From contig CAZBJL010000002.1 in assembly GCA_964492195.1 (NCBI GenBank), positions 25,472-89,471 of the forward strand: 64,000 nt of DNA. The letters are read 5' to 3'. The position numbers were made by a program, and so were the translations under genes. Below are positions 5,772-63,028 of this stretch, one piece after another. Every line of letters starts with the position of its first letter. Position 1 is the stretch's first letter. The notes under the pieces are model-generated. The model saw only the letters and a list, made by a program, of their open reading frames with translations. It was not told where the DNA came from and did no database searches. This stretch comes from an uncultured Candidatus Saccharibacteria bacterium (GTDB lineage: Bacteria; Patescibacteriota; Minisyncoccia; Phycocordibacterales; DATGWK01).

Positions 5772-6024
5772 GCTGGGGATAAGGTATTGATAAGCTTTGG
5801 AATAGTTGTGAGAAAGCCTGTAGATATCTGGAAATTTCTCTAAACAAGGTGTGGATAAAAAAGCATCGAATCCCCAGATTTCAAATTCACCCACATACAG
5901 TTATATTTAATTCACACACGATGGGGACAAGAATTCACAAAAAACCCTTGAATTTAAAGAGAATTAAGCACTTATCAAGATATCCCCAGTCATAGTAATA
6001 GTAGTAGTATTTATATATAGATAT
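5762..6024. promoter_or_regulatory. putative oriC (DnaA boxes + AT-rich unwinding element) in the dnaA-dnaN intergenic region
   Basis: Perfect DnaA box tgtggataa at 5850..5858, 8/9 box tggggataa at about 5764, further degenerate boxes, AT-rich run 5988..6024 (atagtaatagtagtagtatttatatatagatat). Confidence 0.6.
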
Positions 6025-7128
6025 ATGAAGACCGAATGTGTAAAAGAAAAGTTAACAGCGGCGGTAGCACAAGCTGAAAAAATTACCGGGAAGAATTTAT
6101 CTCTTGCTGTTCTTGGTTGTGTATTTCTTGAAGCAGGAAAAAATACACTTTCGATTAAATCTACAAATCTCGATCTTGGTATTGAAATAACAATTCCAAC
6201 TAAAACCGAAAAGGAAGGGAAGGTGGCAGTGCCCGGGAATATTTTATCTGGTTTCCTTAACAACTCTCCGTACGAAAAAAATATAACCCTTGAAACCACA
6301 GACACAGGTCTTCTTAAAATCACTACAGAAAAAACTTCCACAACTATTAAATCCGTAAGTCCTGATGATTTTCCTTCTATTCCACAGGTTTCAGACGAAC
6401 AATCTTTTAAAATTAAAGGATCAGACTTTGTACGCGGTTTAAAGTCGGTCTGGTATAGCTCTTCGGTCTCAAGTATCAAACCCGAACTATCGAGCGTCCT
6501 GGTGCGTTGTGACGACGATACGCTTGTGTGTGCGGCCACAGACTCCTTCCGTCTTGCCGAGAAGAAAGTAAAACTTAAAGATCAAAAACCTTTCGACAGT
6601 ATTTTGATTCCCTTTAAAAACGTTCAAGAAATCATTCGAGTACTCGATGCTTCAGAGGAGGATGTTCTCTTTTGTGTGACTAAAAACCAAATTTCTATTT
6701 CTTACGACGGTGTGTATCTCACATCTCGCGTTATCGACGGTGTTTTTCCCGATTATCACCAGATTATTCCAAAGGAAAACCAAACAGAAGTTATTGTTCT
6801 TAAAGACGATCTCATTCAAGCCTTCAAAATCGCTAATATTTTCTCCGATAAATTTAATCAGGTGAATATGAAAGCTGAACCGTCAAAGAAAACATTTGAA
6901 ATTAAAACAAATAATGCAGATTTGGGTGAAAGTGTGAATAAAATCGATGCAACATTTAAAGGTGATGACGTTGCGGTGAATTTTAATCACAAATACGTTA
7001 CTGATTGTTTTGGTTCGTTGAGCGGCGACAGTCTTTCTTTGTCTTTTAACGGTTTAAGTCGTCCGCTTGTGATTCGTGGAGTAGGTGATCCATCATTCTT
7101 ATACCTCGTGATGCCAATGAATCGATAA
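6025..7128 (+). CDS. dnaN: DNA polymerase III beta sliding clamp
   Basis: 367 aa, three-domain clamp pattern; directly downstream of dnaA/oriC. Confidence 0.9.
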   Translation: MKTECVKEKLTAAVAQAEKITGKNLSLAVLGCVFLEAGKNTLSIKSTNLDLGIEITIPTKTEKEGKVAVPGNILSGFLNNSPYEKNITLETTDTGLLKITTEKTSTTIKSVSPDDFPSIPQVSDEQSFKIKGSDFVRGLKSVWYSSSVSSIKPELSSVLVRCDDDTLVCAATDSFRLAEKKVKLKDQKPFDSILIPFKNVQEIIRVLDASEEDVLFCVTKNQISISYDGVYLTSRVIDGVFPDYHQIIPKENQTEVIVLKDDLIQAFKIANIFSDKFNQVNMKAEPSKKTFEIKTNNADLGESVNKIDATFKGDDVAVNFNHKYVTDCFGSLSGDSLSLSFNGLSRPLVIRGVGDPSFLYLVMPMNR

Positions 7129-28297: not shown

Positions 28298-28369
28298 TGC
28301 CCTCGGCAGGAATCGAACCTGCATTTTGAGTTCCGCAAACTCATGTTCTATCCATTGAACTACGAGGAC
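28298..28369 (-). tRNA. tRNA-Arg (anticodon read as GCG)
   Basis: Hand-folded: acceptor GTCCTCG/CGAGGGC, D arm GTTCAATGGATAGAAC, perfect anticodon stem TGAGT/ACTCA with loop TTGCGGA, T arm CAGGTTCGATTCCTG; anticodon assignment not software-checked. Confidence 0.6.
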
Positions 28370-30987: not shown

Positions 30988-31077
30988 GTGTGTATCTGAT
31001 TAGTAATGATTAATTATACCCATTGCCAGAATTAAAATAGCCCGGAAAACCGGCTATTTTAAATTGGCGGAGGACCG

Positions 31078-32373
31078 TTGAGGCCGTTAGAACTCATTGG
31101 TATACTTCCTAGCATGTTCACATATCTTATTTTTGAAATATTGTCAGGGGTTTTTGGAGTCATTGCCCTTATTGTCTTAGTTATCCATTTAATAAAAAAA
31201 CCTGCAATTCGCGATATTGTAAAAAAACCCGGCATTTACGTCCCTTTCGTTTTGTTCGTGATCGCTCTTTTCACCGGCCTTATCTCCAACCGCACATACG
31301 CACCAGATTTTGCCATGCCGGCGTTCATGCACTCTCATGCTCCTGGCGGTTTACCACCGTCGATTCCTTTTTCTAAAATTTTTGATTTCTTTCAGCACGG
31401 AAAAGATTTTGCGAGGGTCGCTGATATTGGCGCCGATCCAAACGCCGTTCCGAGTGAACCGCAACAGTCAGACGTCGATGGAATTGTGAGAATAAAATTA
31501 CGAGCGCAAGAAGTGATTTCAGAAATTGCCCCAGGAATATATTTTAATTATTGGACGTACAACAATCAGGTTCCAGGACCGATGCTTCGGGTACGTGAGG
31601 GTGACACTGTTGAGGTCGAACTCACCAATGACTCAACAAGCCTGCATGATCATAATATTGACCTGCATGCGGTTACTGGTCCCGGTGGGGGCGCAACCCT
31701 TACTCACGTCGCGCCGGGGGAAACCAAGACTTTCCGGTTTAAGGCGCTCAATCCTGGTTTGTACATTTATCACTGTGCAATGCCAAACGTCAGCACCCAC
31801 AATTCACATGGGCAGTATGGGCTAATCATGGTGGATCCGTTGGATCCAACTTTAGCGCTGTCTCCGGTCGATAAAGAGTTTTATGTTTCCCAGGGTGAGC
31901 TTTATACCGAAGGTCAGCTCGGCAAAAAAGGACTTGTGCCCTTCGATAGCAATGCTTTGCTTGCGGGTGTGCCAAACTACGTCGTGTTTAATGGAAAGGT
32001 CGAAGGTGTGCCAAGAATGCAGGCAAAAGTAGGGGATAAGATAAGAATGTATGTCGGCAACGGCGGGGTGAATTTAATTTCTTCATTTCACGTCATCGGA
32101 GAAATTTTTGACACGGTGTATCCAAATGCAAGTATCGGCGGAGCGCTTGAGCACAATACTCAGGCGACAGGTGTGCTTCCTGGCGGGGCTGCTATTGTTG
32201 AGTTCACCACAGACGTGCCAGGTAAGTATTTGTTGGTTGACCACGCGCTTGCGAGAATGAACAAGGGCGCCTGGGCGGTGCTCGAGGTGTCTGGTCCGGA
32301 AAATCCAGAGATTTTTAGTCAGGTGAACGGCGGGTCTAAAGACGCCCACGTCGGAAGTATGGAGGCGAACTAG
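31078..32373 (+). CDS. copper-containing nitrite reductase-like two-domain cupredoxin (NirK-like), membrane anchored
   Basis: Two N-terminal TM helices; type-2 Cu motif HNIDLHAVTGPGGGA (cf. NirK HN.DFHAATGalGGG); type-1 site YIYHCAMPNVSTH; GC about 50%. Confidence 0.6.
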   Translation: MRPLELIGILPSMFTYLIFEILSGVFGVIALIVLVIHLIKKPAIRDIVKKPGIYVPFVLFVIALFTGLISNRTYAPDFAMPAFMHSHAPGGLPPSIPFSKIFDFFQHGKDFARVADIGADPNAVPSEPQQSDVDGIVRIKLRAQEVISEIAPGIYFNYWTYNNQVPGPMLRVREGDTVEVELTNDSTSLHDHNIDLHAVTGPGGGATLTHVAPGETKTFRFKALNPGLYIYHCAMPNVSTHNSHGQYGLIMVDPLDPTLALSPVDKEFYVSQGELYTEGQLGKKGLVPFDSNALLAGVPNYVVFNGKVEGVPRMQAKVGDKIRMYVGNGGVNLISSFHVIGEIFDTVYPNASIGGALEHNTQATGVLPGGAAIVEFTTDVPGKYLLVDHALARMNKGAWAVLEVSGPENPEIFSQVNGGSKDAHVGSMEAN

Positions 32374-32376
32374 TTA

Positions 32377-32405
32377 TAAAAAGAGCGACCGTCGTCGCTC
32401 TTTTA
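32377..32405 (+). terminator. rho-independent terminator after nirK-like gene
   Basis: aaaaagagcgaccgtcgtcgctcttttaaa. Confidence 0.5.
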
Positions 32406-32582: not shown

Positions 32583-33320
32583 TTGCCTATGCTAGCTTTT
32601 ATCGACGAAACCGGAGACCACAACTTAACTGTAATTGATACACAGTATCCTATATTTGGACTCGGAGTCCTTCTGATTTCTGAAAATGAATATTTGAAAA
32701 TGGATGCTGAAGTAAATTCTCTCAAAAAAAAGTTTTTTGCAGACGACGGAACCTTTATTCTGCATTCATCAGAGCTCAAGCGACCAGTTGATAAAAGGTC
32801 AGATGAACGGAACCTTTGTATGTTAAAGCCAGAAACTCGTACCTTGTTCTATAACGAGTTTGATGAACGAATCATAAAATCCTTAGATTTCAAAATTGTC
32901 ACCTGTTTTATTTTGAAAAAAAGAATGGTTGATAGATACGTGTATCCGGTAGACCCGTACTATCTTTCGTATGAAAACTTGCTTAACAGAATTATAAGAC
33001 ACGGTGGTCAAATGAACACGATGTATGTAGAAAAAAGGGGGCCTGAGCTTGATACTGAGTTGTTGTCGGAACACGAAAGATTAACAAAAACAGGCATCCA
33101 CTCTTTCTCAGCCGAGTCTGTATCTACCAAAACCAGTCTTAACCTGGTGAGTAAAAATAAAAACATGAACGGATTACAGGTTATCGACCTCGTCCTTTCT
33201 TCTTTAACTCGCGCTGGGTTGGGGAAAAAAGACAAAATGATTGGCAATGACCTTAATCCTGAATTTCTTAAAATAAAATACGCTTGCCCTGCGACAGTTT
33301 TCCCCAAAAAACGCATGTGA
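32583..33320 (+). CDS. DUF3800-family protein
   Basis: N-terminal LAFIDETGDHN (DUF3800 ..iDESG.. signature) and HSSELKR (cf. E.HAsE motif); 245 aa. Confidence 0.5.
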   Translation: MPMLAFIDETGDHNLTVIDTQYPIFGLGVLLISENEYLKMDAEVNSLKKKFFADDGTFILHSSELKRPVDKRSDERNLCMLKPETRTLFYNEFDERIIKSLDFKIVTCFILKKRMVDRYVYPVDPYYLSYENLLNRIIRHGGQMNTMYVEKRGPELDTELLSEHERLTKTGIHSFSAESVSTKTSLNLVSKNKNMNGLQVIDLVLSSLTRAGLGKKDKMIGNDLNPEFLKIKYACPATVFPKKRM

Positions 33321-33533: not shown

Positions 33534-34733
33534 GTGGGAGAAAATATGACCGAGCGCAATAAACGAAAACAGGACTATTTACCGGAGGCAGATTTGTACA
33601 TACTCTGGCTTTTGTGCGATGCGAATAAAATGTTCAGAAAATCAAGAATAGTTTTCGGCGACCTCACAGCTCTTGGCTCAAGCGAAATGCTTTCGGTCGT
33701 TATCACCAAGAATCTTTCTCGTGCCTTCGGCTTTGAACTTAAAGATTTTGAACTCGTGCGAGGTAAGTACGCTTTCGATGGTTTTTGTGCTGACAAATAT
33801 GAGAAAAATAAAGAATTTTGCGAAAAGCATCCCGACAGCACAATGGCAAAAGCGTTAGCCAAAATACATGAAGGCGATTTTGATTTTGAAGATGTGGAGA
33901 AGGCGAATTTTCGTCTGAATGGATACTTGGAGTTCATTGAATTTTCTCCTCAGATTTCAAAAAAATCTAAAAAAACAATTTTGGACTTCATGTCGCGTTA
34001 CCTTACTGACTATGTGAACGACGGGCTCAGGCCAGAGAAAGAAAATTTCTACGAGTTCAACAAACAACTCCTTTTTACATACGGATTACTGAAGAAATAC
34101 ATCGACCAGTACGGGAATAGTTTTGTTTTTGAAATAGCCCAACTCACGGTGAAACCGAACGAGTTTCCCGAGCAAAAAGAAAGCCCTTACCTGCCGGTTC
34201 ACAACCTGCTTGCCCTGGAAGCAATGAAGTTTATCGAGATAGACCAGGTTTGGATTTCTGATTGGGAAGTGAATCCTGAAGAAGAGCGGGGTACTTACAA
34301 GGTACGAGTGAAAATAAATCAGGCAATGATTGATTTCTTTGGCGATTTTGACCCAAAAATCACTTACGATTTTGGTGAAAAAACGAAAGACGACTCTGCT
34401 GTAAAAACTGATGATGCTGATGCGAAACTAGAATTTGACGGTGTCACTAGAACGCTGTTTTTTGCCAACACGTCAATTCTTATCTCGAAGCAGTCAGAGA
34501 GTGACCCGTGCAAGCTAATGAAAACTCTTTTCAAGGATAAAAATAAGGTTTGGGCTAATGATGAAATATTGGAAGACTGGGGCTACTCTTTTGACGATGA
34601 AACATCGAAAAACAAGGTCTATCAGGCAGGCAAGGCCGTCAACCGGATTGTGGCTCAGGATACGAAAATAAAAGATTTCCTTGATGTTAGTACAAAATCA
34701 GTATCGATAAACAAAAAATATTTGAAGACCTAA
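33534..34733 (+). CDS. hypothetical protein (399 aa)
   Basis: SD-like aaggaggt upstream; acidic, no recognised motif; followed by hairpin + T7. Confidence 0.4.
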   Translation: MGENMTERNKRKQDYLPEADLYILWLLCDANKMFRKSRIVFGDLTALGSSEMLSVVITKNLSRAFGFELKDFELVRGKYAFDGFCADKYEKNKEFCEKHPDSTMAKALAKIHEGDFDFEDVEKANFRLNGYLEFIEFSPQISKKSKKTILDFMSRYLTDYVNDGLRPEKENFYEFNKQLLFTYGLLKKYIDQYGNSFVFEIAQLTVKPNEFPEQKESPYLPVHNLLALEAMKFIEIDQVWISDWEVNPEEERGTYKVRVKINQAMIDFFGDFDPKITYDFGEKTKDDSAVKTDDADAKLEFDGVTRTLFFANTSILISKQSESDPCKLMKTLFKDKNKVWANDEILEDWGYSFDDETSKNKVYQAGKAVNRIVAQDTKIKDFLDVSTKSVSINKKYLKT

Positions 34734-34984: not shown

Positions 34985-36100
34985 ATGTTGGACACTGTCG
35001 TTCTAAACGTGCCGAGAGGGTCGTATAAGCTCAGACCCGAAGCGTTTACGCCAAACGCAATCATTCTCAGGATGTCTGGGAATTATCTAGTGAAGTGCGT
35101 CAATAATCCGAGTGCCGCCGACAAGAAAGCCGGAATCTATAGGCCACGTTTGACCTTAATGAAAAGGATGACACGAAACGGTAGCGAAATACCGCTTAAA
35201 ATCGAGTTCTCTGTGGCAAAGATGCTTTATGGAAATAATGTTGACGAGGTGGAAGAAATCGACTTTGAAAAAGTTATTTCGGCACTACATGAAGCAATGA
35301 TTGAAATGCAGGTCTATGTGTCGCACGAGAATTTAAGAAATGCCAAAGTGTCGGCTTTTCATCCGTCAAAAAACGTTAGGCTTACAGACGGGTACACTTC
35401 AAGCTTCGTGATTACTGAACTCCGTAAGGTTGATGTCAGTAAGAAAATGGACATTAACCGTGACAGCTTCAGGAATAGTGGACATTCGCTCCAGTTCTAC
35501 ACAAACTCCCATTCGCTTGTTGTGTACGACAAAGTTTACGACCTTAAAAAACCCGAGAAACGAGCTATGGATAAAAACCAGAACTCACTTCAACTTTCTC
35601 TCTTCGACACACTAACGAAGAAGAAAAAGACAGAGGTCTTGCGTATTGAAGCTCGACTCGCAAAAAAAGTTAAAATGAATGCGATTTTGAGAGGGCTGGG
35701 ACTCAAGGAAAATCCAACTTTTGCAGATGTTTTTAAGAAGAATGTTTGTCAGAAAATACTTCTCAATTACTGGGATGAAATCATTGTGGGTAAAAATCTT
35801 TTCTTGTTCGATGTTGAGAGCAATCCGAAGAAAACCCTTGATTCCATTTTCAAAAATAAGCCCAAAATAAAACCAAAAGACGCTCTGTACCTCGTGGGTC
35901 TCAGGGTTCTCAGTAAGGGTGGAATCAGAGACACGAGGTCGGTTGTCGAGCGGTATTCGACACCTCGAACTTGGTATCGGATAGCAAAAGATTTGAAGTT
36001 TCTCGACGACATTTCAAGTAAGACCTACCACGGTTGGGTAAGACAAATAAAAGATGCGCTCGATGATTTCGTACCATTCCGAATATCCACGGCCGAATGA
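34985..36100 (+). CDS. hypothetical protein (371 aa), possible replication/mobilisation function
   Basis: Basic, Lys-rich; located in recombinase-associated cluster; no catalytic motif securely recognised. Confidence 0.4.
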   Translation: MLDTVVLNVPRGSYKLRPEAFTPNAIILRMSGNYLVKCVNNPSAADKKAGIYRPRLTLMKRMTRNGSEIPLKIEFSVAKMLYGNNVDEVEEIDFEKVISALHEAMIEMQVYVSHENLRNAKVSAFHPSKNVRLTDGYTSSFVITELRKVDVSKKMDINRDSFRNSGHSLQFYTNSHSLVVYDKVYDLKKPEKRAMDKNQNSLQLSLFDTLTKKKKTEVLRIEARLAKKVKMNAILRGLGLKENPTFADVFKKNVCQKILLNYWDEIIVGKNLFLFDVESNPKKTLDSIFKNKPKIKPKDALYLVGLRVLSKGGIRDTRSVVERYSTPRTWYRIAKDLKFLDDISSKTYHGWVRQIKDALDDFVPFRISTAE

Positions 36101-36330: not shown

Positions 36331-39300
36331 ATGGCCGGATTATTCAAAAATAAAATCATAAAAGGAAAGATTGAACGGTTTGAAATACCCGATTTTGACC
36401 AGAAGCTCTCGGTAGTTAAATCCTGGTCTGATGCCTACAATGCAGGGGAACTTCAAAAGAAAAATGAGACCCAGTGCGAGCAGGCTTTCAATCAAGATTT
36501 TTTCATAAACATCCTTGGCTACTCGGCTTTTCCAAAAGAAAACTACACTATTCAGCCTAAAGACAATGTGGAAAGTGGAGGCGGTCAGATGCCTGACGCA
36601 ACGCTCGGCTATTTCGGCAAAGAGGGAAAGCGTGTTGTGGCCGTCGTTGAAATAAAAGACGCCAATACATCTCTTGATAAGTCGCAGTATCGGGAAGGTA
36701 GCCTGAGTCCAATCCAGCAGGCTTTCAAATACAAACCTCAATTCAAGGAGTGTGGTTTTGTTATAGCTACGAACTTTTTTGAACTCCGATTATTCCGAGA
36801 TAATCAACTCGATTACGAAAAATTTACACTCACGGAGCTAATCGACCCAAAAGATAATTATTACAATTTTCGCAAATTCTTTTTTCTCCTGAATGTTCAG
36901 AATTTTGTAACGGAAAAGGGGCAGACAGAAACCGAAATGCTTCTTTCGGCTATTCGTGTTGAGCAAGAAAAAATTACGAACCGGTTTTATGCGCAGTATA
37001 AGGAACTCCGTGAAAGTCTAATTACCGACATCGTAGAAAACAATAAAGACATTAAGCGGCCGGACTTTTATGGTTATATCGTTGAAAAGGCGCAGAAAAT
37101 TGTAGACCGAATAGTGTTCATATGTTTCTTCGAGGACTCCGGATTGTTGCCAGAGAATAAATTGGTCGAGGTTGTTGAGTATTCGCAAAAAAGCCAGTTG
37201 AGCGAACCGATTTGGGAAACCCTAAAAAAGTTCTTTAAGGCTGTAGATGAGGGAAGTGACCGGTTGGGAGTGCCGAACGGATATAACGGTGAACTTTTTA
37301 AGCAGGACAATGACCTTGATAGGCTGAAGGTAAGCGACTCAATTTGCAAACGCTTCATCGAACTTACGAATTTTGATTTTCAGGAAGACCTCTCGGTTAA
37401 CATTCTTGGTCACATTTTTGAGCAATCTATTACCGACCTTGAGAGACTGAAACAGTATTCAGAAGCAAGCACAATCACTGTCAGTAAAAAGGACACAAAG
37501 CGTAAAAAGGATGGAATTTTTTATACACCGGAGTATGTTGTTGATTACATTGTTAAAAACTCGTTGGGTAAATTCTTGTTTGAAAAAGAGACCGAAATTT
37601 TACAGAAGTTTAATCTTGACGACAAAAGGGTAAAAGAAGCTGGCTACAATAAAAAATTGGCACAAGCGTACTCGGAGTACAGTCAGTTTTTGAGAGGCGT
37701 GAAAATTCTTGACCCCGCTTGTGGCTCCGGAGCTTTTTTGGTAAAAGTGTTCGATTACTTACTTGCCGAACATAAAAGAGTTTTCAAGGTCGTTAATGAA
37801 GCGGAGGGACTAGACGGCAATAGCGCGTTACTTTCTGAAGAGAGTTACATAAAGCCGATTTTGGAAAACAATATTTTCGGTGTAGACCTTAACCCTGAGA
37901 GCGTCGAAATAACCAAGCTTTCGCTATGGCTCAAGTCGGCTCAAAAAGGTCAGAAGCTTATTACGCTCAAAGGAAATATAAAATGTGGCAACAGTTTGAT
38001 TGATGATTCGCAGATTGCAGGTGAACGAGCTTTCAATTGGTCTGCCGAGTTTCCATCAGTTATGAATGAAGGGGGCTTTGATGTTGTCGTTGGTAATCCT
38101 CCATATGTATTTGCCCGCGGTGGTAATTTCAATGAAAAAGAAAAGGAATACTATTACGGAAAATATAAGCTCGCAAACTATCAGATAAATACCTTCCTTC
38201 TTTTTATCGAGTTATCCAGGGGTTTGTTAAAGAAAAATGGTGAACTCGGTTTCATTATCCCGAACAACTGGCTCACGATAAGTTCCTTCGCGCCATTGAG
38301 AGAATTTATCATCAAAGAAAATGGCGATGTTCACATCTACAATGCGGTAGATAAAATATTCAACCAAGCCAGTGTAGATACTTGTTTGTTGTTTTTGAAA
38401 AAAGCTGAACCAACTACTGTCGTTCTTGGCGAACTTACAGCAGAAGAGGTAACGGTCGTGTCTGAGTCAAAACCCGAAGCATTTTTTGGCAACGATTTTA
38501 TATTGAGAATTGCTCACAAAGACAAGGTAGCAATAAAGTTTAAAAATTGTATTTCTTTGAAAGAAATTGCAACCGTAAAATCAGGGCTGAAAGCTTACGA
38601 GGTTGGAAAAGGTATCCCACAGCAGACGAAAGAAATGAAAGACACTCGAGTTTATCATTCGACGACATCTAATGGCGTGGATTGGCTTAAATACCTAGAG
38701 GGAGCAGATGTTGTCCGTTATCATCTTGGTTGGTCTGGCGAATATATCAAATATGGTCATAACCTAGCGGCTCAAAGGAGTTTGGAGCTATTTAATAGCC
38801 CAAGAATTGTGGTTCGCCAGATACCCTCGCGGCCGCCTTACTGCATAAATGCAATTTATTCAAAAGACATATATATAAACGACATCAATAGCCACAATAT
38901 TCTAAATATAAAAAGTGATTACCCTTATTTATACGTTCTTGGTGTTATCAATTCGGCGTTGCTGTCTCACTGGTTTGTAAATACCTTTGATAAATTCCAG
39001 AGAAAGATTTTTCCTCAATTTAAGGTTAATGAGCTTGAGCAATTTCCAATCGCAGAGGCGACGGATAAGGACAAAAATTCACTAGAGGTTCTTGTTGGAA
39101 ATACAATTTTGGCTAATGACGAGTTCTACTCAAAACTTAACAAGAGCAAAGAGCTTTTACGCATTGAGCTTAGTCTTGAAAAATTACCGACAAAACTCAA
39201 TCATTTCTATGAATTTTCATTTGACGAAGTGCTCAAGATTTCAAAAGCATCATTGAGTTTGGATAAAAAATCAGAACTCATGGATTTCTTCACAAAACAA

Positions 39301-39432
39301 AAAGACGAACTAAAAAATCTTAACGGTCGAATCGTTGCTTTAGACCAAGAGATTGACGAGCTTGTCTATAAGGTCTATGGGCTTTTAGCCGACGAAATCA
39401 AGGTTGTAGAAGACTTCAAAAAGAACAAATGA
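36331..39432 (+). CDS. Type IIG restriction-modification enzyme (MmeI-like fused endonuclease / N6-adenine methyltransferase)
   Basis: N-terminal PD-ExK (PDATLGYF...VVAVVEIKD), gamma-class MTase motif I LDPACGSGAFL and motif IV VVGNPPYV, long C-terminal TRD; 1033 aa. Confidence 0.65.
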   Translation: MAGLFKNKIIKGKIERFEIPDFDQKLSVVKSWSDAYNAGELQKKNETQCEQAFNQDFFINILGYSAFPKENYTIQPKDNVESGGGQMPDATLGYFGKEGKRVVAVVEIKDANTSLDKSQYREGSLSPIQQAFKYKPQFKECGFVIATNFFELRLFRDNQLDYEKFTLTELIDPKDNYYNFRKFFFLLNVQNFVTEKGQTETEMLLSAIRVEQEKITNRFYAQYKELRESLITDIVENNKDIKRPDFYGYIVEKAQKIVDRIVFICFFEDSGLLPENKLVEVVEYSQKSQLSEPIWETLKKFFKAVDEGSDRLGVPNGYNGELFKQDNDLDRLKVSDSICKRFIELTNFDFQEDLSVNILGHIFEQSITDLERLKQYSEASTITVSKKDTKRKKDGIFYTPEYVVDYIVKNSLGKFLFEKETEILQKFNLDDKRVKEAGYNKKLAQAYSEYSQFLRGVKILDPACGSGAFLVKVFDYLLAEHKRVFKVVNEAEGLDGNSALLSEESYIKPILENNIFGVDLNPESVEITKLSLWLKSAQKGQKLITLKGNIKCGNSLIDDSQIAGERAFNWSAEFPSVMNEGGFDVVVGNPPYVFARGGNFNEKEKEYYYGKYKLANYQINTFLLFIELSRGLLKKNGELGFIIPNNWLTISSFAPLREFIIKENGDVHIYNAVDKIFNQASVDTCLLFLKKAEPTTVVLGELTAEEVTVVSESKPEAFFGNDFILRIAHKDKVAIKFKNCISLKEIATVKSGLKAYEVGKGIPQQTKEMKDTRVYHSTTSNGVDWLKYLEGADVVRYHLGWSGEYIKYGHNLAAQRSLELFNSPRIVVRQIPSRPPYCINAIYSKDIYINDINSHNILNIKSDYPYLYVLGVINSALLSHWFVNTFDKFQRKIFPQFKVNELEQFPIAEATDKDKNSLEVLVGNTILANDEFYSKLNKSKELLRIELSLEKLPTKLNHFYEFSFDEVLKISKASLSLDKKSELMDFFTKQKDELKNLNGRIVALDQEIDELVYKVYGLLADEIKVVEDFKKNK

Positions 39433-40901
39433 AAGCCATAATCCTCGCCAGAGTTTCGGATAAAAAACAGGACTCAAACGAGGCTCAACTTTCACGAATA
39501 CTTTCGTATGCCAAGAGTAAGAATTTAGAAAAATGGAAAGTTTTTGAGCTAGAGGAGTCGTCCACTAAAGGTGTTAGAAAAAAGTTTCAGGAAATAATCG
39601 ACATCATCCGAGCATCCAAAGAGATAATCGCGCTTGTTGTTGATACGGTAGACCGACTGCAAAGGAGTTTTCAGGAATCGGTTGTTTTCGACGAACTTCG
39701 CAGAGAAGGAAAGGTAGAAATACATTTTTTTAGAGAAAATTTAATCATCAACAAAAAATCGAATAGCGCAGACATTCTTCGTTGGGATATGGGCGTCATG
39801 TTCGCCAAAAGCTACGTGTTGCAACTCAGCGACAACGTCAAAAGGAAGCAGGACAAAATGCGAGAAGATGGAGATATAACCGGAGCGCCGCCAATCGGCT
39901 ACGAGAGTGTATATAACGAAGCAGAAAAGAAGAGAAGAATCGATGTTATTCCAGACGAAAAAGCACACTACATCGTTAAAATTTTTGAAGAATACGCAAA
40001 GGGTGACGTGTCAGTAAAAACACTTTCAGAACGGATGTATAACGTCGGCTTGAGGAGCAAGACTGGCGTGAAGGTTAATCACGCAATGATTTTCAAAATT
40101 TTGAACGACACTTTCTATCACGGTGAAGCTTATTCGCGTACGCACAAACTCAGGTATCGTCACAAGTTCAAGTCAATAATCACAAAGGAACTTTTTGATA
40201 GATGTCAGGCTGTGATGGCGAAACACAATAAAGTACCGACAAAATATGCCTCGATGCCCTTTATGTTCGGAGGAGGCTCTGTTACGTGCGCACATTGTGG
40301 CGGTACTGTCGGGGGACAACTTAAAAAGGGTAAATACGTCTATTACAGTTGTTCTGGGTACAAGAAGTGTAAGAGGGTATACGTAACCGAAGAAGAGCTT
40401 GTGGGGCAGGTATACGGCGTTCTAGACAACCTGGAGCTACCTGATGACAGGATTGAAGAAATCACTGCCGGTCTAAAGGAAATCGGCGAGAACGAGAACA
40501 AATTTTATCGAACCAATATAACCGGCCTCAGGGCGGAATATGACAAGTACGATGCAAGAATAAAGAAAATGTACGAAGACCGGCTCGACGGACGTATTAC
40601 GGAAGATTTGTATGACAGTTATTTAAGAGAGTACAAAGAAAAACAGGCTGAACTCTTGAGTCAGATGCAAGACCACTCGAGCGCTGACGAACAATTCTAT
40701 ATAACCGCGAATATGACTTTGAATATAGCCCAAAGAGCCAAAGAGATATTCTTGAGTTCTGAACCCGAGGAGAAAAGGCAATTTTTGGGTTTTCTACTTC
40801 AGAACTGTACCCTAGACGAGAAAAAGCTATATTTCTCCCTACGTTCACCCTTTAATTTCATATCGGATTACACCGATAATACTACGTTGCGGAGGAGGTG
40901 A
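39429..40901 (+). CDS. large serine recombinase (integrase)
   Basis: Resolvase catalytic domain with Ser in AIILARVSDKKQ, recombinase domain, Cys4 zinc ribbon (CAHCGG...YYSCSGYKKCK), coiled-coil tail; last 12 nt overlap tRNA-Ser 3' end. Confidence 0.8.
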   Translation: MKAIILARVSDKKQDSNEAQLSRILSYAKSKNLEKWKVFELEESSTKGVRKKFQEIIDIIRASKEIIALVVDTVDRLQRSFQESVVFDELRREGKVEIHFFRENLIINKKSNSADILRWDMGVMFAKSYVLQLSDNVKRKQDKMREDGDITGAPPIGYESVYNEAEKKRRIDVIPDEKAHYIVKIFEEYAKGDVSVKTLSERMYNVGLRSKTGVKVNHAMIFKILNDTFYHGEAYSRTHKLRYRHKFKSIITKELFDRCQAVMAKHNKVPTKYASMPFMFGGGSVTCAHCGGTVGGQLKKGKYVYYSCSGYKKCKRVYVTEEELVGQVYGVLDNLELPDDRIEEITAGLKEIGENENKFYRTNITGLRAEYDKYDARIKKMYEDRLDGRITEDLYDSYLREYKEKQAELLSQMQDHSSADEQFYITANMTLNIAQRAKEIFLSSEPEEKRQFLGFLLQNCTLDEKKLYFSLRSPFNFISDYTDNTTLRRR

Positions 40902-40975
40902 GATTCGAACTCACGGTCCCTTGCGAGACTCTCGTTTTCAAGACGAGCGCGTTAGACCACTCTGCCACTCCTCCA
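40890..40975 (-). tRNA. tRNA-Ser (anticodon TGA)
   Basis: Hand-folded: acceptor GGAGGAG/CTCCTCC, anticodon stem CTCGT/ACGAG loop CTTGAAA, long variable arm, T arm GTGAGTTCGAATCTCAC. Confidence 0.8.
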
Positions 40976-46702: not shown

Positions 46703-46785
46703 GCGCAGGTGGCGAAATTGGTAGACGCACTACCTTGAGGTGGTAACGCCCATCGGGCATGGAGGTTCAAGTCCTCTCCTGCGCA
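46703..46785 (+). tRNA. tRNA-Leu (anticodon GAG)
   Basis: 83 nt, acceptor GCGCAGG/CCTGCGC, anticodon loop TTGAGGT, long variable arm, T arm GGAGGTTCAAGTCCTCT. Confidence 0.75.
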
Positions 46786-46797
46786 CTGGTTTTTTAT

Positions 46798-48502: not shown

Positions 48503-49120
48503 ATGCAAACAAAATCAGTTGTAATTGGTTTGGTGGCAGGGCTGGTTCTAGGTTTACTGGTTTATCCTACGGTTTTTCAAGGTAGAGGAATGATGAATGG
48601 CAGATTTTCGTCAAATGGCACGAACAACCAAATGATGGGCAATATCGATCGTCATTTTATTGAGCAAATGATTCCACACCATGAAGGGGCGATCGAAATG
48701 GCAAAACTTGCGTTAGAAAAATCAAAACGTCCAGAAATGATTTCTCTTGCGAAGGGAATTATCGAGGCTCAACAGCGTGAAATTACGGACATGAAGAAGT
48801 GGTATAAGGATTGGTTCGGTGCAGACGTGCCTGTGACAAGTCAGCACATGATGGGCGGTAACATAATGAGTGGCAGTAACTCGCACATGAGTAGCATGAG
48901 TGGAGACCTCGACAATCTCAAGGCCGCAAAAGATTTTGACCTAGAGTTTATCAACCAAATGATTCCACATCACGAAATGGCAGTAATGATGGCAACGATG
49001 CTTAAGGGTTCAACCGATCGACCTGAAATGAAAGAACTGGCTGATAATATTATTTCATCTCAAACCAGTGAAGTTGAGATGATGCGTTCTTGGGCGAAGG
49101 TCTGGAGTAAGCAGTTATAA
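48503..49120 (+). CDS. DUF305-family protein
   Basis: Duplicated FIEQMIPHHEGAIEMA / FINQMIPHHEMAVMMA motif typical of DUF305; N-terminal TM/signal. Confidence 0.6.
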   Translation: MQTKSVVIGLVAGLVLGLLVYPTVFQGRGMMNGRFSSNGTNNQMMGNIDRHFIEQMIPHHEGAIEMAKLALEKSKRPEMISLAKGIIEAQQREITDMKKWYKDWFGADVPVTSQHMMGGNIMSGSNSHMSSMSGDLDNLKAAKDFDLEFINQMIPHHEMAVMMATMLKGSTDRPEMKELADNIISSQTSEVEMMRSWAKVWSKQL

Positions 49121-51941: not shown

Positions 51942-54608
51942 ATGGCAAAGCGCGCAATTGAACATATTTTTACAGGAGCAACGGTACCGTACGAAAATTA
52001 CGATGCTGATAAAACGATGTTGGGAGATTTGATCGAGCAGTACACCGGTGCTCTTGCGACAGACAATTTTGCTGGACCTGCAAAAATTGGCGTCGCTCGT
52101 CCTTTCGAAACAGGAACATCGATCCCGGGAATCTTTCCACATGTTATTTCGTGGGGAAACAAAGAGGGCTTTTATTCTACTGGCACAGTTTCAGTTGCGG
52201 CCACAGCGGTTACCGGATCGGGGACTGGTTGGCTTGCCAACGGAGTTCCGATTGGTGCCCGTATCGGCTTCGGTTCAACAGATCCCGCTAGCATAACTAC
52301 CTGGTATACGATAACGGCAGTAGCTTCAGCTACGGCTCTAACAATAGGTAGTTCTGCGGGGACGATCGCCGGAGGTACCGCTTTTGTTATAAATAAGGAA
52401 ATTAAAAAAGACTGGGTATTTTTGGCTGACGGTATCGCTGCATCTGCAATTCGTCGCATTACATGTTTTGAATACGACAGACTCACATCGCTTTTTTCGT
52501 GGAGAGGTTTCATCACTATCACATACGCTGCCGGTGGAGGTAACCAAACGATTCGTGGAATGCGAGCGGTGTATGAGACGTACACTACAGGAACAATAGG
52601 TGTTTCAGGTGCCACGGTTACTGGTTCCAGCACAACGTGGTCAGCAGATCGAATTGCTATTGGTTCACGTATTGGTTTCGGTAGCACGGATCCAACACAA
52701 ATATCTACGTGGTACTACATCAACGCTGTTGGTTCTGATACCTCTATTACTATTCAAACAAACATAACCGCGAGCGGTACTGGTGGAACCGCGGCAAATA
52801 TTTCAGTATCGTCGAGTACCGCCTATGTCATTGAGGATTTGAAAATTTTAACTGCCACTACCACTGCTACGAATATAAACGCAGGTGGTCTTACAATGGT
52901 GAACGGTCTTTCGTATGACGATTTTGCTGTTGGAGGTACTACCATTGCTGCGGCAACAACGGTGGATAAAACAAAAGCCGCATATTCTCTTGTTGATCTC
53001 GATTCGGTGTATTCAACGGGAACAATAAACACAGTTACCAATTCAACAACAGTTACCGGTTCTGGAACAACGTGGGTGTCAGCCTCTCACGTGGGTTGTA
53101 TGATCGGTTTTGGTTCAACAAGTCCCGCCTCGATTACAGAATGGTTCACTATTACTGCGTTTACGTCGGGTACCTCCATAACTATTTCCTCCGCCACCAC
53201 TGTCACCAACGGTTCAGCGTATGTGATCGTTGGTGGAAACGGTATATCCTGCGGTTTGGCGATGGATGATCGTGATAGTTGGACACAACAATATGCATAC
53301 ATCATTGAGCTTCAGGGAGGAACGACACCACAGGTGTATAAATATAATTTCCGAGTGAACCTCAGTACCCTCGGAAACGTAGAAGCGGGAAAAGCTGCAG
53401 CTGCGTGGGTGCTCACAACCGGTACCCAGACGCTTACTGGAACCGTGACACAAACAAATAATGGGCGAATTGGAACGCTCGCTCATGGTCCTGGTTCTGG
53501 TACGAAGTGTTTGTATTTCGCAGCAACAACAAGGATTCATCGTGCTCCACTCGCTAGTATCACCCAAGGAAGTATTACGTGGGTCGCGGATTCGATGACA
53601 GAAGTACCAACAGGAGGATCGGGAACGTATACCTTAACGAGCTTGATGACATCAGTAGAAATTGCCGATCAGATCGATCGACTTATTATTACTTCAACAG
53701 GAGCAGGCGCGACCGTTGCCCATCATCGTGCCTACATTACAAAATACGACGCCTCTGGTTCGTACCAATTTGACCATATGTTTTTGGCAGATACTGCACA
53801 ACAAGACCAATCTACTGCAGACTCGACCTCTACACCCCACCCGAGTTACCAGGGAGCCGCTTTGTCTGTGTGGTCACAGGCTGGTCTTGTATATATTGTT
53901 CGTACCGGACTTACAGCAACGACGAATATTATGTACGCTGTTCCGCTCGGTGCTGATTGGCAGTACGCGGATGGTACGGTAAATCAAAGACTCATCACAC
54001 CTTCACTTCCTACAACAAATGCAGAAAAACTATCCAGGGTGTTTGTAAATAATGCTGATTATCTTGGATCAGGTGGACTTACGTTGCCGACAGAACCTTT
54101 AAGAATTTATTATCGAACAGCGGATATTACTGATGATTCTGGTTCCTGGACACTCGTAGACACTACAGGAGATTTGTCTGCTGCGAACGTCACGACCGAG
54201 ATACAGTTTGCAATAGAATTTCGAATGATCGGAGCATTGTGTATTCCAAACCGTGTCTACAATCTTTGCTGCACGTACGAAGACAACACAACTGATAGTC
54301 ACTATCAGCCGTCTGTGGGCCAGTCATCTACAACTGGAAAGATTTTTGCATGGAGATTTTCAACTGCATTCGGTGGTACAGTACCGACATTGCGTATCAG
54401 GCTCTACAATGCTGAAACAGATGCGGAATTGCTCGATGACACAACAACGGCTTCTGCTGATGGAACGTGGGGAAAATCAACAAACGATGGGGCAGGGTGG
54501 GGTTTATACGACGCAACGGACAAGGGAAATGAAACGACGTACATTCGGTATACCCCAACGGTCCTTGCTGACAATATAAAAGTAAGAGCGCTTCTCACTC
54601 AAGCATAA
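51942..54608 (+). CDS. large repeat protein (888 aa) with about 45-aa GSGT.W...IGFGST.P..IT.WYTI repeats
   Basis: At least 4 copies of the repeat in the N-terminal 450 aa; Thr/Ser/Gly-rich; no signal peptide seen. Confidence 0.5.
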   Translation: MAKRAIEHIFTGATVPYENYDADKTMLGDLIEQYTGALATDNFAGPAKIGVARPFETGTSIPGIFPHVISWGNKEGFYSTGTVSVAATAVTGSGTGWLANGVPIGARIGFGSTDPASITTWYTITAVASATALTIGSSAGTIAGGTAFVINKEIKKDWVFLADGIAASAIRRITCFEYDRLTSLFSWRGFITITYAAGGGNQTIRGMRAVYETYTTGTIGVSGATVTGSSTTWSADRIAIGSRIGFGSTDPTQISTWYYINAVGSDTSITIQTNITASGTGGTAANISVSSSTAYVIEDLKILTATTTATNINAGGLTMVNGLSYDDFAVGGTTIAAATTVDKTKAAYSLVDLDSVYSTGTINTVTNSTTVTGSGTTWVSASHVGCMIGFGSTSPASITEWFTITAFTSGTSITISSATTVTNGSAYVIVGGNGISCGLAMDDRDSWTQQYAYIIELQGGTTPQVYKYNFRVNLSTLGNVEAGKAAAAWVLTTGTQTLTGTVTQTNNGRIGTLAHGPGSGTKCLYFAATTRIHRAPLASITQGSITWVADSMTEVPTGGSGTYTLTSLMTSVEIADQIDRLIITSTGAGATVAHHRAYITKYDASGSYQFDHMFLADTAQQDQSTADSTSTPHPSYQGAALSVWSQAGLVYIVRTGLTATTNIMYAVPLGADWQYADGTVNQRLITPSLPTTNAEKLSRVFVNNADYLGSGGLTLPTEPLRIYYRTADITDDSGSWTLVDTTGDLSAANVTTEIQFAIEFRMIGALCIPNRVYNLCCTYEDNTTDSHYQPSVGQSSTTGKIFAWRFSTAFGGTVPTLRIRLYNAETDAELLDDTTTASADGTWGKSTNDGAGWGLYDATDKGNETTYIRYTPTVLADNIKVRALLTQA

Positions 54609-56466: not shown

Positions 56467-59400
56467 ATGTCTGTTCGTGCCCCTTCTATTTCCAATGGAT
56501 TGCGTAGAGTGTCCATATTCACTTGGGCATTAATTATTTTTTTATCTGGGGTTCCAGCAGTTGTAAATGCAGCGTATGAGCGATACGGAACCGGGGAAAC
56601 GGCCGTTGTCGGCGAATTTGTGTATGACGATGATTTTGTGGCGACGACGACCCCTTGTACTGTTTCAATATATGACCCATCGGGATCTTTGATTGTAAAC
56701 GCGGCCTCCATGACTGCTGATGCAAATGGTTGGCATCATTACGACTATTCAGTTCCGTCTTCGGGTCCAGAGGGTACGTGGCCTTCATCAATGACGTGTG
56801 GCAGTGTGCCGACAGGTGATCTGGTAAAGCTAGATAAGACGTTTGTGGTTGGAGCGACTTTTGTATCAACTTCCACGTTGGCGACTTCTGTATGGACGAG
56901 CACAGCTCGAACTTTGACATCGTTCGGTACGCTTGTGGCAGATGTGTGGAGCAATACAAGTCGAACATTGACTGGTGCAGGGCTAAATTCAGGATCACTT
57001 GCAACACAGCTTGACGTTAACAACGCGTCGTCTTCACTTGCGGCAACCTTACCTGCATCTATTTGGGCAAATCCAACTCGTTCACTTACAACGTTCGGAA
57101 CATTGGCTGCAGATGTGTGGGCAAATAGCACACGCACATTATCTTCCGGCGGCGTAACAGCAGTTTCAACTGACGTATGGTCATTTGCAACCCGTAGACT
57201 TTCAGACGCCACGCTTGATTCTGGTTCGCTCGCAACGGTTTCAAATCTTACAACAGCAAGCTCATCTCTTGCCGCTGTCGTAAACGGAACTATTTCAACT
57301 GCCTCAACTTCTTTGGCAGCTGTAATAAACGCGAATACAGATACTCAAGCGTCGACAATAACTTCAGGAGTTAATTCAAATACAAATGCTGCAATTCTTA
57401 GCGCAACTTCATCTCTTGCCGCTGTCGTAAACGGAACTATTTCAACTGCCTCAACTTCTTTGGCAGCTGTAATAAACGCGAATACCAATTCTCAAATTTC
57501 AAGTGCGGTTGTGACTATCAACAACAATACAAATTCAACTGTCCTCACGGCATCTTCTTCTCTTGTTGCAACTATTCCTACCGCGGTATGGTCAAACAAC
57601 ACAAGATCACTTACAACGTTCGGAACATTGGCTGCAGATGTGTGGAACGTAGCTACGTCATCTTTTGTGACGGCAGGGTCAGTGGGTCTCCAGTTGGTAA
57701 CAAATCTTGATGTGCCTGTTTCAACAGCAGTGGGCAGTGCAGCACCAACCGCTTCGGACATTTGGAGTTTTGCGAGTCGAACACTTACAGACTCAACGCT
57801 TACTTCTGGTTCACTCGCAACATTGGCGAACGTAACGAGCGCGTCGTCTTCGCTGGCGTCAGCGGTTAGTGCAGGAACCGCAAGTGTCAATTCAAATACA
57901 AATGCCGCTGTGCTTGTAGCGTCAACTTCTCTCGCAACAGTTATTAATGCAAACACGAATTCACAAATATCGAGCGCAATCGCTACGATAAACAGCAACA
58001 CAGATTCTCAAGTTCTTACGGCCTCGACATCGTTGGTCGCCACTATCCCTACGGCTGTCTGGTCGAGTACGTCACGTTCATTAACAACATTCGGAACATT
58101 GATTGCAGATATTTGGACTAATCCAACTCGTACGCTCACATCCGGGGGTTCTCTAACGGCAGCAGACGTCTGGTCGTTTGCAACTCGTCGTCTTTCAGAC
58201 GCTTCGCTTGATTCTGGTTCGCTCGCAACGGTTTCAAATCTTACAACAGCAAGTACATCTCTCGCTGCGGTAATAAATGCGAATACAGATACTCAGACAT
58301 CAGGAATAGCTTCATCGGTTAATTCAAATACAAATTCAGCAATACTTAATGCGTCTACGTCGATTGCGTCAGGCGTAAATGCAAATACAAATGCCGCAAT
58401 TCTTGGCGCAACTTCATCTCTTGCCGCTGTCGTAAACGGAACTATTTCAACTGCCTCAAGCTCTTTGGCATCTGTAATAAACGCGAATACAAACTCTGTG
58501 GTTCTCGGTGCGTCCACATCGGTTGCTGCGGTTGTGAATACTAATACTAATTCCCAAACATCTGGAATCGCATCAGCAGTTAACTCAAACACGAATTCCA
58601 TTGTTGGTAGCGCTTCTACATCTCTCGGAGTATCTCTCACCTCGCTTCCAGCTTCCGTGTGGGCATATAGCTCACGTTCACTTACAACCTTTGGAACGCT
58701 CGTTGCGGATATTTGGGCAAACGTAACAAGAACACTCACGTCATCAACGGGCGCTACATGGTCTATGACAGTTTCTGATTTTGGAACTATTACAGCAGGA
58801 AGTAATTATCTCGCGACACTCCACACAGTTTTTGACGGTACTCTTACTGATGCCGACACTGTTCCGACAGTTACTCTCTATGATCCTAGTCGAAACGTGG
58901 TCGTGAGTGGGGTATCTATGACTCGTGTTTCTGCGGGTACTTATACATATTCATACACGACGTCAGGGTCTGCAGAAGCAGGAACGTGGGAAACAGTATT
59001 TTCTGCGACCGTAGAAACAGGAAAGACGTTGGGTGGTAACGATTACTGGGAGGTTTCTTCAAGTCCGGCGCAAGTAATTATTAATAGTATTTCAGACAAC
59101 ACAGTGCCGTCCATCGAAGCAAACGTTACGATAACAAACGAAGGTTTGACTGGATATGAATATCAATACGAGTGGTGCGTGGTTTCAGATATAAATAATT
59201 CTTGTGGAGGCGGAGATGACATTTTCCACGCAACTGCAGCAAAATTTATTAACCCTGGTGAAGATTTCAACACAACGCTTACCTCGACTGTTTCTTCTGT
59301 TGGGGATTACTACTTTAAAGCCGTGGTCTATTTCGGGACTGAAAGTTCCGGTGCTTCAAGGTCTTTTTCCGCAATATCAGACTCAACGTCACCGCCAACT

Positions 59401-62946: not shown

Positions 62947-63028
62947 TTCAATTATTCTACCTCATTAAAAACTAGTCCGCGAGATCGGTTTTGTAATGTG
63001 TTTATGGCCGTGTCCAGAAATTTTATTT

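Follow-up and report, generated by a model that had tools for sequence, protein, structure and literature searches.

We analyzed a 64,000-nucleotide (nt) stretch of DNA (hereafter the window, to which all coordinates refer) and found that an open reading frame (ORF) on its plus strand, 31078–32373, encodes what is, by its sequence, a copper-containing nitrite reductase (NirK) of the AniA-like class in which the axial methionine of the type-1 copper site is replaced by glutamine. The account we consider likely is that the product is a functional, nitric oxide (NO)-forming NirK of Paceibacterota, with a membrane-tethered AniA-like core, an intact type-2 site and a type-1 entry site altered by the glutamine. 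Read from its TTG codon, the ORF has 431 amino acids (aa) and contains both motifs quoted in a preliminary description of this DNA, HNIDLHAVTGPGGGA and YIYHCAMPNVSTHNSHGQYG. Residue numbers below refer to the 419-aa protein that starts at ATG 31114, unless the 431-aa ORF is named.

The protein matched the NCBIfam equivalog model TIGR02376 over residues 116–417 at 302.6 bits, a small margin above the cutoff of 296.3, and the Pfam families Cu-oxidase_3 and Cu-oxidase_2 both matched, indicating two consecutive cupredoxin domains. The closest solved relatives found with HMMER were structures of AniA from Neisseria gonorrhoeae (1KBV and 5TB7, E about 4e-94 to 6e-94), with which the protein shares 54% identity over 283 aa; the other solved matches were cores of further class II or three-domain NirKs. 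In an AlphaFold2 model that took 91 homologues as input, the predicted local distance difference test score (pLDDT) exceeded 90 throughout the core, and Foldseek superposed this core on solved NirK cores with template-modeling (TM) scores of 0.95 (6THE) and ~0.90 (AniA). The type-1 site lies in domain I, as do two type-2 histidines. Outside the core, residues 1–117 consist of the two transmembrane helices and a disordered tether, with just one further, short helix, and the C-terminus extends 14 residues; neither Pfam nor AlphaFold2 placed in either segment an extra redox domain, such as the fused cupredoxin or cytochrome of class III enzymes.

Functional residues were mapped by aligning the protein to AniA with HMMER and by aligning 81 clade members together with AniA in MAFFT. 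These members are species-level loci, namely the window and the best 80 related loci from species-representative genomes. The type-1 ligands His180, Cys221 and His229 are kept (AniA H94, C135 and H143; H192, C233 and H241 in the 431-aa ORF), as are the type-2 ligands His185, His220 and His377 (AniA H99, H134 and H289; H197, H232 and H389 in the 431-aa ORF) and the catalytic residues Asp183 and His326 (AniA D97 and H240; D195 and H338 in the 431-aa ORF). All eight are invariant across the species-level loci (81/81), and the catalytic Ile328 is present and nearly invariant. The axial position, AniA M148, is occupied by Gln234 (Q246 in the 431-aa ORF), encoded by a CAG codon at 31813–31815 that is two substitutions from ATG. 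Spacing in the type-1 loop, C221-x7-H229-x4-Q234, equals that of AniA C135-H143-M148. The residues found at the site are therefore not the canonical set His-Cys-His-Met, since Gln234 stands for Met beside His180, Cys221 and His229; they are a stellacyanin-type set, His2-Cys-Gln. The missing methionine does not exclude the protein from the NirK family, because an accepted NirK, that of Thermus scotoductus SA-01 (TsNirK), departs identically (PMC6400189). The idea of a pseudogene or a decaying enzyme was ruled out by the invariance of all catalytic residues. Assembly is presumably homotrimeric, with type-2 copper at the subunit interfaces; our model is a monomer, and the interface ligand His377 is kept in 81/81 loci.

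The surroundings of the type-1 site also differ from those of AniA. The clade has two additional, invariant histidines. One, His178, stands two positions before the type-1 ligand His180 and corresponds to Val in AniA; the other, His232, stands two positions before Gln234 and corresponds to Asn. A histidine at –2 occurs in Met- and Leu-type relatives as well and so is not tied to the glutamine by itself. The exposed histidine ligand lies in polar surroundings, NVST-H-NSHG, the AniA counterpart being PVGM-H-IANG. His178 aligns with Met92 of the Ralstonia enzyme RpNiR, with the same numbering offset as for AniA, and in RpNiR Met92 is in direct contact with the haem of the donor tethered to the enzyme (PMC13324648). 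This correspondence and the polar flanks suggest that the donor-docking surface was remodelled together with the axial ligand.

The glutamine is a property of the whole clade. It occupies the AniA Met148 position in every one of the 81 species-level loci, and the motif HGQ[YF]G is found in 120/120 of the closest protein clusters formed at 90% identity (71–100% identity). When a peripheral member served as the query, all 119 further clusters, 58–89% identical to that member, had Gln as well. The 80 related loci encode it by CAA in 47 cases and by CAG in 33; both codons are in use, and selection therefore acts on the amino acid. Beyond the clade, methionine predominates: a regular-expression tally of NirK representatives at 50% identity gave 117 Met, 5 Gln, 4 Leu and 1 Ala, and the alignment used for the tree gave 99 Met, 11 Gln, 4 Leu and 2 Ala. 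A neighbor-joining tree, a crude distance tree that is adequate for monophyly and not for fine branching order, placed the Gln clade as a monophyletic group inside the AniA-like class, with Met-type (P0126, P0123) or Leu-type (P0124) sisters. One separate Gln lineage (P0145) was nearest to HdNiR and AniA, not to TsNirK.

Natural NirK homologues with Leu or Ala at the axial position include P0124, P0131, P0134, P0205, P0247 and others, at a rate of 4 Leu and 1–2 Ala among ~120–150 representatives. Because such homologues occur, the axial ligand appears to be labile in this NirK branch.

These results agree with much of the preliminary description, which had read the ORF as a two-domain NirK-like cupredoxin: the family model, the Pfam domains, the AniA match and the fold all bear this out. 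It had further proposed that the type-2 motif resembles that of NirK, that Cys and His are spaced as in NirK and that Gln, as a stellacyanin-like ligand, replaces the axial Met. The alignments found every type-2 His and catalytic residue, spacing identical to AniA and Gln at Met148, that is, neither a canonical axial Met nor a loss of type-2 histidines, and the stellacyanin-like ligand was confirmed as a residue set. An organism with a reduced genome, also suggested there, is what we find: the host is an ultra-small member of the Patescibacteria (Paceibacterota), and the named homologues of its RuvB come from Parcubacteria, Paceibacterota and Patescibacteria. All of the closest NirK loci have either a Patescibacteria label or one that is obviously the result of mis-binning, and the best 80 come from Patescibacteria metagenome-assembled genomes.

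Membrane anchor, tether and transcription signals

The N-terminal anchor of two transmembrane helices noted in the preliminary description is modelled as helices by AlphaFold2. Every full-length clade member (78/78) has exactly two hydrophobic stretches of 19 residues, as do 111/119 proteins of the deeper set. The loop between the helices has a mean net charge of +3.3 over the 78 members, and the N-terminal tail is close to neutral (~0). Because the loop is basic, the positive-inside rule puts the N-terminus and the catalytic domain outside the cell, so that the catalytic part is predicted to lie on the outer face of the cytoplasmic membrane.

Helix 2 is followed by a segment rich in Met and His (residues 61–79) whose consensus over the 81 loci is T-Y-[PA]-P-x-F-A-M-P-x-F-M-H-S-H-A-P-G-G. 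P64, F66, M68 and P69 are invariant, and H73 and H75 nearly so. Deeper in the clade the pattern becomes FAMP.FMH[ST][MH]APG, in which Met often takes the place of the last His and sometimes that of the first; outside the clade, the anchors of related NirKs are followed by a looser segment, T[FY]GPG...P.H[MH]. Residues 57–85, which connect helix 2 to the core, have pLDDT below 50 though they are strongly conserved. That Met and His replace each other in a flexible segment close to the membrane and outside the cytoplasm is expected of a Cu(I)-binding 'Met motif', and the most likely role of the tether would be that of an arm near the membrane that handles Cu(I) or binds a partner.

The start codon needs correction. 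The preliminary description had begun the protein at TTG 31078, but all homologues start at ATG 31114, and the database twin of the window protein (P0001) has 419 aa. The upstream start was rejected despite a GGAGG four bases before it, the 12-residue extension being unconserved and the clade mostly lacking Shine-Dalgarno sequences. A consensus scan instead found a promoter-like site ending 7 nt before ATG 31114, with TTG 31078 falling within its –35-like hexamer. In 74/77 related loci there is no Shine-Dalgarno sequence within 18 nt of the conserved ATG. A –10-like hexamer ends 5–9 nt before the ATG in 39/78 loci, compared with 4–5/78 at control offsets, and the spacing peaks at exactly 6 nt (26/78 loci). 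Given the rarity of Shine-Dalgarno sequences and the closeness of the –10-like box to the ATG, the nirK mRNAs of the clade are probably leaderless and TTG 31078 is probably part of a –35 box.

A terminator of the gene's own, likewise proposed earlier, is supported by a predicted hairpin that begins 6 nt past the stop codon (–15.7 kcal/mol, z –5.1, with 0/200 shuffles equally stable), though the consensus scan did not call it because its T run is short. A perfect hairpin bordered by runs of A and T, ATAGCCGG-aaaa-CCGGCTAT, lies upstream at 31037–31064, between nirK and a DUF1428 gene. It resembles a terminator for the DUF1428 gene, which is on the minus strand, and is placed just upstream of the putative nirK promoter.

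Proposed function, candidate partners and rival readings

We propose that the two-helix hairpin and a flexible tether of ~40 residues hold NirK on the outer face of the cytoplasmic membrane, where its active site would carry out NO2- + 2H+ + e- -> NO + H2O. Intact type-2 histidines, an intact Cys-His bridge and the retained catalytic residues (Asp, His and Ile) lead us to expect the usual nitrite chemistry. What would differ is the type-1 site at which electrons enter, with its His2-Cys-Gln set, two extra histidines and polar surface. A Gln axial ligand lowers the potential of type-1 copper, and the potentials of stellacyanins are, to our knowledge, the lowest among cupredoxins. Kataoka et al. 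reportedly found in 2003 that the Met150Gln mutant of AcNiR has a potential ~0.1 V more negative and reacts poorly with pseudoazurin. The Gln oxygen ligand of the window NirK would lower the type-1 potential by roughly 0.1 V and so give a greater driving force toward type-2 copper. Changes of the axial ligand move the type-1 potential by about 0.1 V, as with Met144Leu in AxNiR, which raises it by 96 mV (PMC13324648). A lowered type-1 potential would suit a donor unlike those of classical denitrifiers (azurin, pseudoazurin or cytochrome c), in organisms without a bc1 complex and c-type cytochromes, and the Met/His tether could capture copper from an exporter or bind a partner.

Candidates for that donor come from related loci. 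In four of them (L013, L014, L024, L032), a 698-aa gene lies directly upstream of nirK on the same strand (1696–3792 in L024), with an ArsR-type gene before it. Its product has three parts, namely a polytopic membrane domain, a domain like cytochrome b5 (PF00173) and a beta-propeller of the cytochrome d1 kind (PF02239, E 2e-67), an architecture that looks unusual. It is a possible electron-transfer or N-oxide partner of NirK. The nearest Met-type relative, P0122 (438 aa, 58% identity), has, as read from its sequence, an N-terminal transmembrane helix and a b5-like haem domain fused before the NirK core. The b5-d1 gene and the b5 fusion are leads to the electron donor; neither is in the window.

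Other genes recur near nirK. A class II (B12) ribonucleotide reductase was found in 28–29 loci, a DUF6580/ECF-S-like membrane protein in 22, a PNPOx-like protein in 15 and a PduO-type cobalamin adenosyltransferase in 12–14. Much of this falls into a cobalamin-related block (class II ribonucleotide reductase, DUF6580/ECF-S-like, PduO-type and DUF4430 genes) upstream of nirK in ~22–28 loci (L003, L006, L016, L029, L045 and others), which is probably lineage synteny. Membrane proteins of the HMA-DsbD_2 and Cupredoxin_1 kinds occur occasionally. The search for a conserved cupredoxin neighbor in the 80 related loci gave nothing but a membrane protein of PF13473 ('Cupredoxin_1') that lacks type-1 ligands; it lies beside copper-export genes in 3 loci.

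Several points weigh against a functional NirK with a Gln-ligated entry site. The copper site is visible neither in the sequence nor in the AlphaFold model, so that coordination by the Gln234 oxygen is inferred by analogy with Gln130 of TsNirK, and pLDDT falls to 73 in the type-1 loop itself. Both the size and the sign of the supposed potential shift derive from work on AcNiR Met150Gln, stellacyanin and azurin M121Q. The tether motif could be a mere packing or partner-binding segment. The 64-kb window yielded no cupredoxin, cytochrome c, nitrite transporter or NO reductase in a scan for CxxCH and cupredoxin motifs and in Pfam searches of 55 ORFs, which left out three 3' ORFs (60492–63817) and a few short or overlapping ones. 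As to novelty, searching the open-access literature for stellacyanin or axial Gln together with bacteria of the candidate phyla radiation (CPR) gave nothing further, and a description elsewhere is possible.

The lower model confidence in the type-1 loop would also fit a site at which Gln234 is not a ligand, the copper being three-coordinate in the manner of sites with axial Leu or Phe, or bound through His232, with a potential that is raised or otherwise unlike that of stellacyanin. Close relatives with Leu or Ala (P0124, P0131, P0134) suggest that this branch tolerates a non-coordinating residue, and His232, an Asn in AniA, never varies within the clade. We nevertheless regard this arrangement as very unlikely, given that Gln never changes over more than 300 sequences whose flanking positions do, that the distances from Cys to His and from His to the axial residue match AniA exactly, and that a Gln oxygen binds copper in every solved case, namely stellacyanin, azurin M121Q and Gln130 of TsNirK (PMC6400189, PMC3764938). 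The neighboring genes raise a different question, whether the NirK fold serves mainly another job: copper handling, as a cuprous or other oxidase that works with the copper exporter, or the deliberate release of NO as a signal or weapon against a host cell, in place of nitrite respiration or detoxification. Within 4 kb of nirK, 10/81 loci have a copper P-type ATPase that bears an HMA domain, and 20/81 have an ArsR-type helix-turn-helix regulator, often 10–60 bp upstream on the same strand; the window holds a DUF305 gene and no respiratory partner gene was found in it; and the literature is itself unsure why CPR bacteria have nirK (PMC5581439). Such a role seems quite improbable to us all the same. 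The nitrite-specific catalytic Asp and His are invariant and the Ile nearly so, and a laccase-like or cuprous oxidase needs a trinuclear cluster, which is absent here. A nearby copper exporter is equally expected for the metallation of an extracytoplasmic copper enzyme, and an NO weapon would still depend on nitrite reductase chemistry.

Going beyond the tethered, NO-forming NirK proposed above, the Patescibacteria NirKs could form a distinct functional type, with a low-potential, Gln- and His-decorated type-1 site and a copper-binding arm, fed by an unconventional donor and independent of any quinol:cytochrome c pathway. We think this unlikely. If it were so, candidate donors would be a haem b5-type membrane protein (compare the 698-aa protein above) or a partner on the host surface, and nitrite reduction or NO production would belong to the core of the episymbiotic lifestyle and not be a remnant of denitrification.

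Genomic setting and mobility of the gene

The preliminary description had put the gene at about 50% guanine plus cytosine (GC) in a roughly 40% background and had taken this to suggest horizontal acquisition. The actual figures are 47.7% for the ORF and 42.6% for the window; nirK has the highest GC of the long ORFs, but the excess lies mainly at codon position 1 (56.9%), as fits a protein rich in Gly, Ala, Val and Pro. GC at third codon positions is 0.475; the stop-to-stop frame used for comparison has 0.472, which is z about +1.2 relative to the long ORFs (mean 0.407, sd 0.053). Synonymous codon usage, at z –1.27 and rank 6 of 49, is no outlier either. Composition within the range of the window thus does not bear out the earlier suggestion.

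Context gives a different, weaker hint of mobility. The gene sits in a 12.5-kb stretch that runs from a tRNA-Arg (28298–28369) to a tRNA-Ser (40889–40974) and separates the housekeeping gene for RuvA from that for RuvX; its order is small membrane proteins, a glyoxalase-fold protein, DUF1428, nirK, DUF3800, two genes without family match, a type IIG restriction–modification enzyme and a large serine recombinase. The immediate neighbors (DUF1428, glyoxalase, DUF3800) recur in none of the 80 related loci, and in the closest relatives (82% identity) nirK has an ArsR gene and one for a class II ribonucleotide reductase beside it. Counting the window, where the copy lies 7 kb downstream of nirK, the recombinase family is present in 10/81 loci; in 7 related loci a serine recombinase is found no more than 4 kb from nirK. 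One could therefore suppose that nirK was recently acquired, arriving with the adjacent mobile island, a reading that we consider rather unlikely. The 7 kb between the two genes and the predicted promoter and terminator of nirK itself speak against a joint arrival. A search for direct and inverted repeats around the tRNA-bounded region gave only short matches at chance level and no att-like repeats, and no relatives of the NirK were found in viral contigs. The window protein is 65–87% identical to hundreds of other Patescibacteria NirKs, so any transfer would have taken place within Patescibacteria and not from a classical denitrifier; the clade's restriction to the phylum excludes a source outside it. 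Relocation or exchange within the phylum is plausible in view of the unshared neighbors and the adjoining island, at a similarly low probability.

Table 1. Features of nirK and of the adjoining part of the island, in window coordinates.
Feature	Coordinates	Strand	Details
Promoter-like site	31078–31106	+	–35 TTGAGG (31078–31083), 17-nt spacer, TG-extended –10 TGgTATACT (31098–31106); consensus scan
nirK coding sequence	31114–32373	+	419 aa + stop; copper-containing nitrite reductase, AniA-like class II core
Transmembrane helix 1	31117–31194	+	residues 2–27; Kyte-Doolittle 19-residue score 2.86; AlphaFold2 helix
Basic loop KKPAIRDIVKKPGI	31195–31236	+	predicted cytoplasmic (positive-inside rule)
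Transmembrane helix 2	31237–31290	+	residues 42–59; hydropathy 1.86; AlphaFold2 helix
Tether motif TYAPDFAMPAFMHSHAPGG	31294–31350	+	residues 61–79; Met/His-rich
Cupredoxin domain I	31465–31848	+	~residues 118–245; Cu-oxidase_3 E 1e-15; pLDDT >90; TM score 0.95 to 6THE
Sensor loop HDHNIDLH	31645–31668	+	extra His178, type-1 His180, catalytic Asp183, type-2 His185; all invariant 81/81
Type-1 loop HCAMPNVSTHNSHGQ	31771–31815	+	type-2 His220, type-1 Cys221 and His229, extra His232, axial Gln234
Cupredoxin domain II	31861–32328	+	~residues 250–405; catalytic His326, Ile328, type-2 His377; pLDDT >90
Terminator-like hairpin AAAAGAGCGAC-cgtc-GTCGCTCTTTT	32379–32404	+	begins 6 nt past stop
DUF3800 gene	32583–33320
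Two ORFs without family match	33534–34733, 34985–36100
Type IIG restriction–modification enzyme, MmeI/Eco57I type	36331–39432		1033 aa
Large serine recombinase	39429–40901		end overlaps opposite-strand tRNA-Ser(tga) 40889–40974

The rest of the window carries genes for DnaA and DnaN, YidC, PBP1, RuvABC, PolA, type IV pilus components and TatC. DnaA and DnaN lie at 4386–7128, GC skew turns from negative to positive around 3–7 kb, and a replication origin is probably inside the window. The DUF305 protein at 48503–49120 (E 2e-41) is the only other possibly copper-related gene that we saw in the window; we take the DUF305 family to include copper-binding four-helix-bundle proteins. At 46703–46786, directly before a tRNA-His, ARAGORN placed a tRNA of undetermined identity with the irregular anticodon 'tg' (Rfam tRNA, 49 bits). 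Two very large ORFs, at 51942–54608 (888 aa, no family match) and 56467–59640 (1057 aa, weak MG2 and dockerin matches), likely encode surface proteins of an episymbiont.

Comparison with known copper nitrite reductases

The window NirK is a member of a published clade: NirK in Patescibacteria (CPR bacteria) was reported by Danczak et al. in 2017 (PMC5581439) and surveyed again in 2025 (PMC12931201), and a published supplementary alignment contains CPR NirKs with the TM-...FAMP.FMH...HGQYG features. The preliminary description had called a membrane-anchored NirK in a reduced-genome organism metabolically notable; NirK of CPR bacteria has been in the literature since 2017 (PMC5581439). Both papers treat the enzyme as standard, and neither mentions the Gln, the anchor or the tether motif (PMC5581439, PMC12931201). 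The clade-wide Gln ligand thus seems to have been overlooked, and published statements on CPR NirK that 'all ligands are conserved' are inaccurate. We found no biochemically characterized member of the clade in the open-access literature, and its members appear to make up an undescribed NirK variant, combining a two-helix anchor and a Met/His tether with what would be an exposed, Gln-ligated type-1 site. Patescibacteria account for a large share of the bacteria in groundwater and wastewater, and their nirK routinely enters nitrogen-cycle inventories as though it encoded the standard enzyme. If Gln ligation, the remodelled docking surface and the tether hold clade-wide, redox tuning, donor and perhaps rate would differ from those of textbook NirKs.

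AniA is the nearest of the well-studied enzymes. It shares the two-cupredoxin fold, the type-1 His, Cys and His, the type-2 histidines and the catalytic Asp, His and Ile, and it too is extracytoplasmic and attached to a membrane. The two differ at the entry site, where AniA has the axial Met148 and a hydrophobic patch and the window NirK has Gln, a polar patch and two extra histidines, and in the attachment itself, AniA being an outer-membrane lipoprotein and the window NirK relying on a two-helix hairpin with a Met/His tether. Further likenesses within class II are to the cores of RpNiR and of the Bradyrhizobium ORS375 enzyme (6THE) and to HdNiR.

A natural Met-to-Gln replacement in a Thermus NirK was noted in 2013 (PMC3764938) and its structure solved in 2019 (PMC6400189), with a homologue in Thermus oshimai. 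In this enzyme, TsNirK (6HBE), the oxygen of Gln130 is bound to the type-1 copper and kcat is 65 s-1 (PMC6400189). TsNirK is thus a natural, catalytically active NirK whose core type-1 copper has the same His2-Cys-Gln set. It is a distant relative (E 5e-32), has Ser for the catalytic Asp and carries a C-terminal cupredoxin that buries the Gln site as an internal relay, whereas the window NirK keeps the Asp and has no extra redox domain, so that its Gln site must be the point of entry. In the neighbor-joining tree the Gln clade forms a single monophyletic group among class II enzymes of the Met type, an indication that its Gln arose separately from that of TsNirK.

The same His2-Cys-Gln set in a cupredoxin loop is found in stellacyanin, azurin M121Q and AcNiR Met150Gln. 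Stellacyanins are single-domain plant electron carriers, and engineered Met-to-Gln mutants show impaired interaction with donors. Those mutants are artificial, whereas the Gln of this clade is natural and fixed and is accompanied by compensating surface changes. So far, a Gln site in NirK has been known only from one Thermus enzyme, where it is a buried relay, and from crippled mutants made in the laboratory; the clade would offer bioinorganic chemists a natural series of hundreds of two-domain NirKs with an exposed, stellacyanin-like site.

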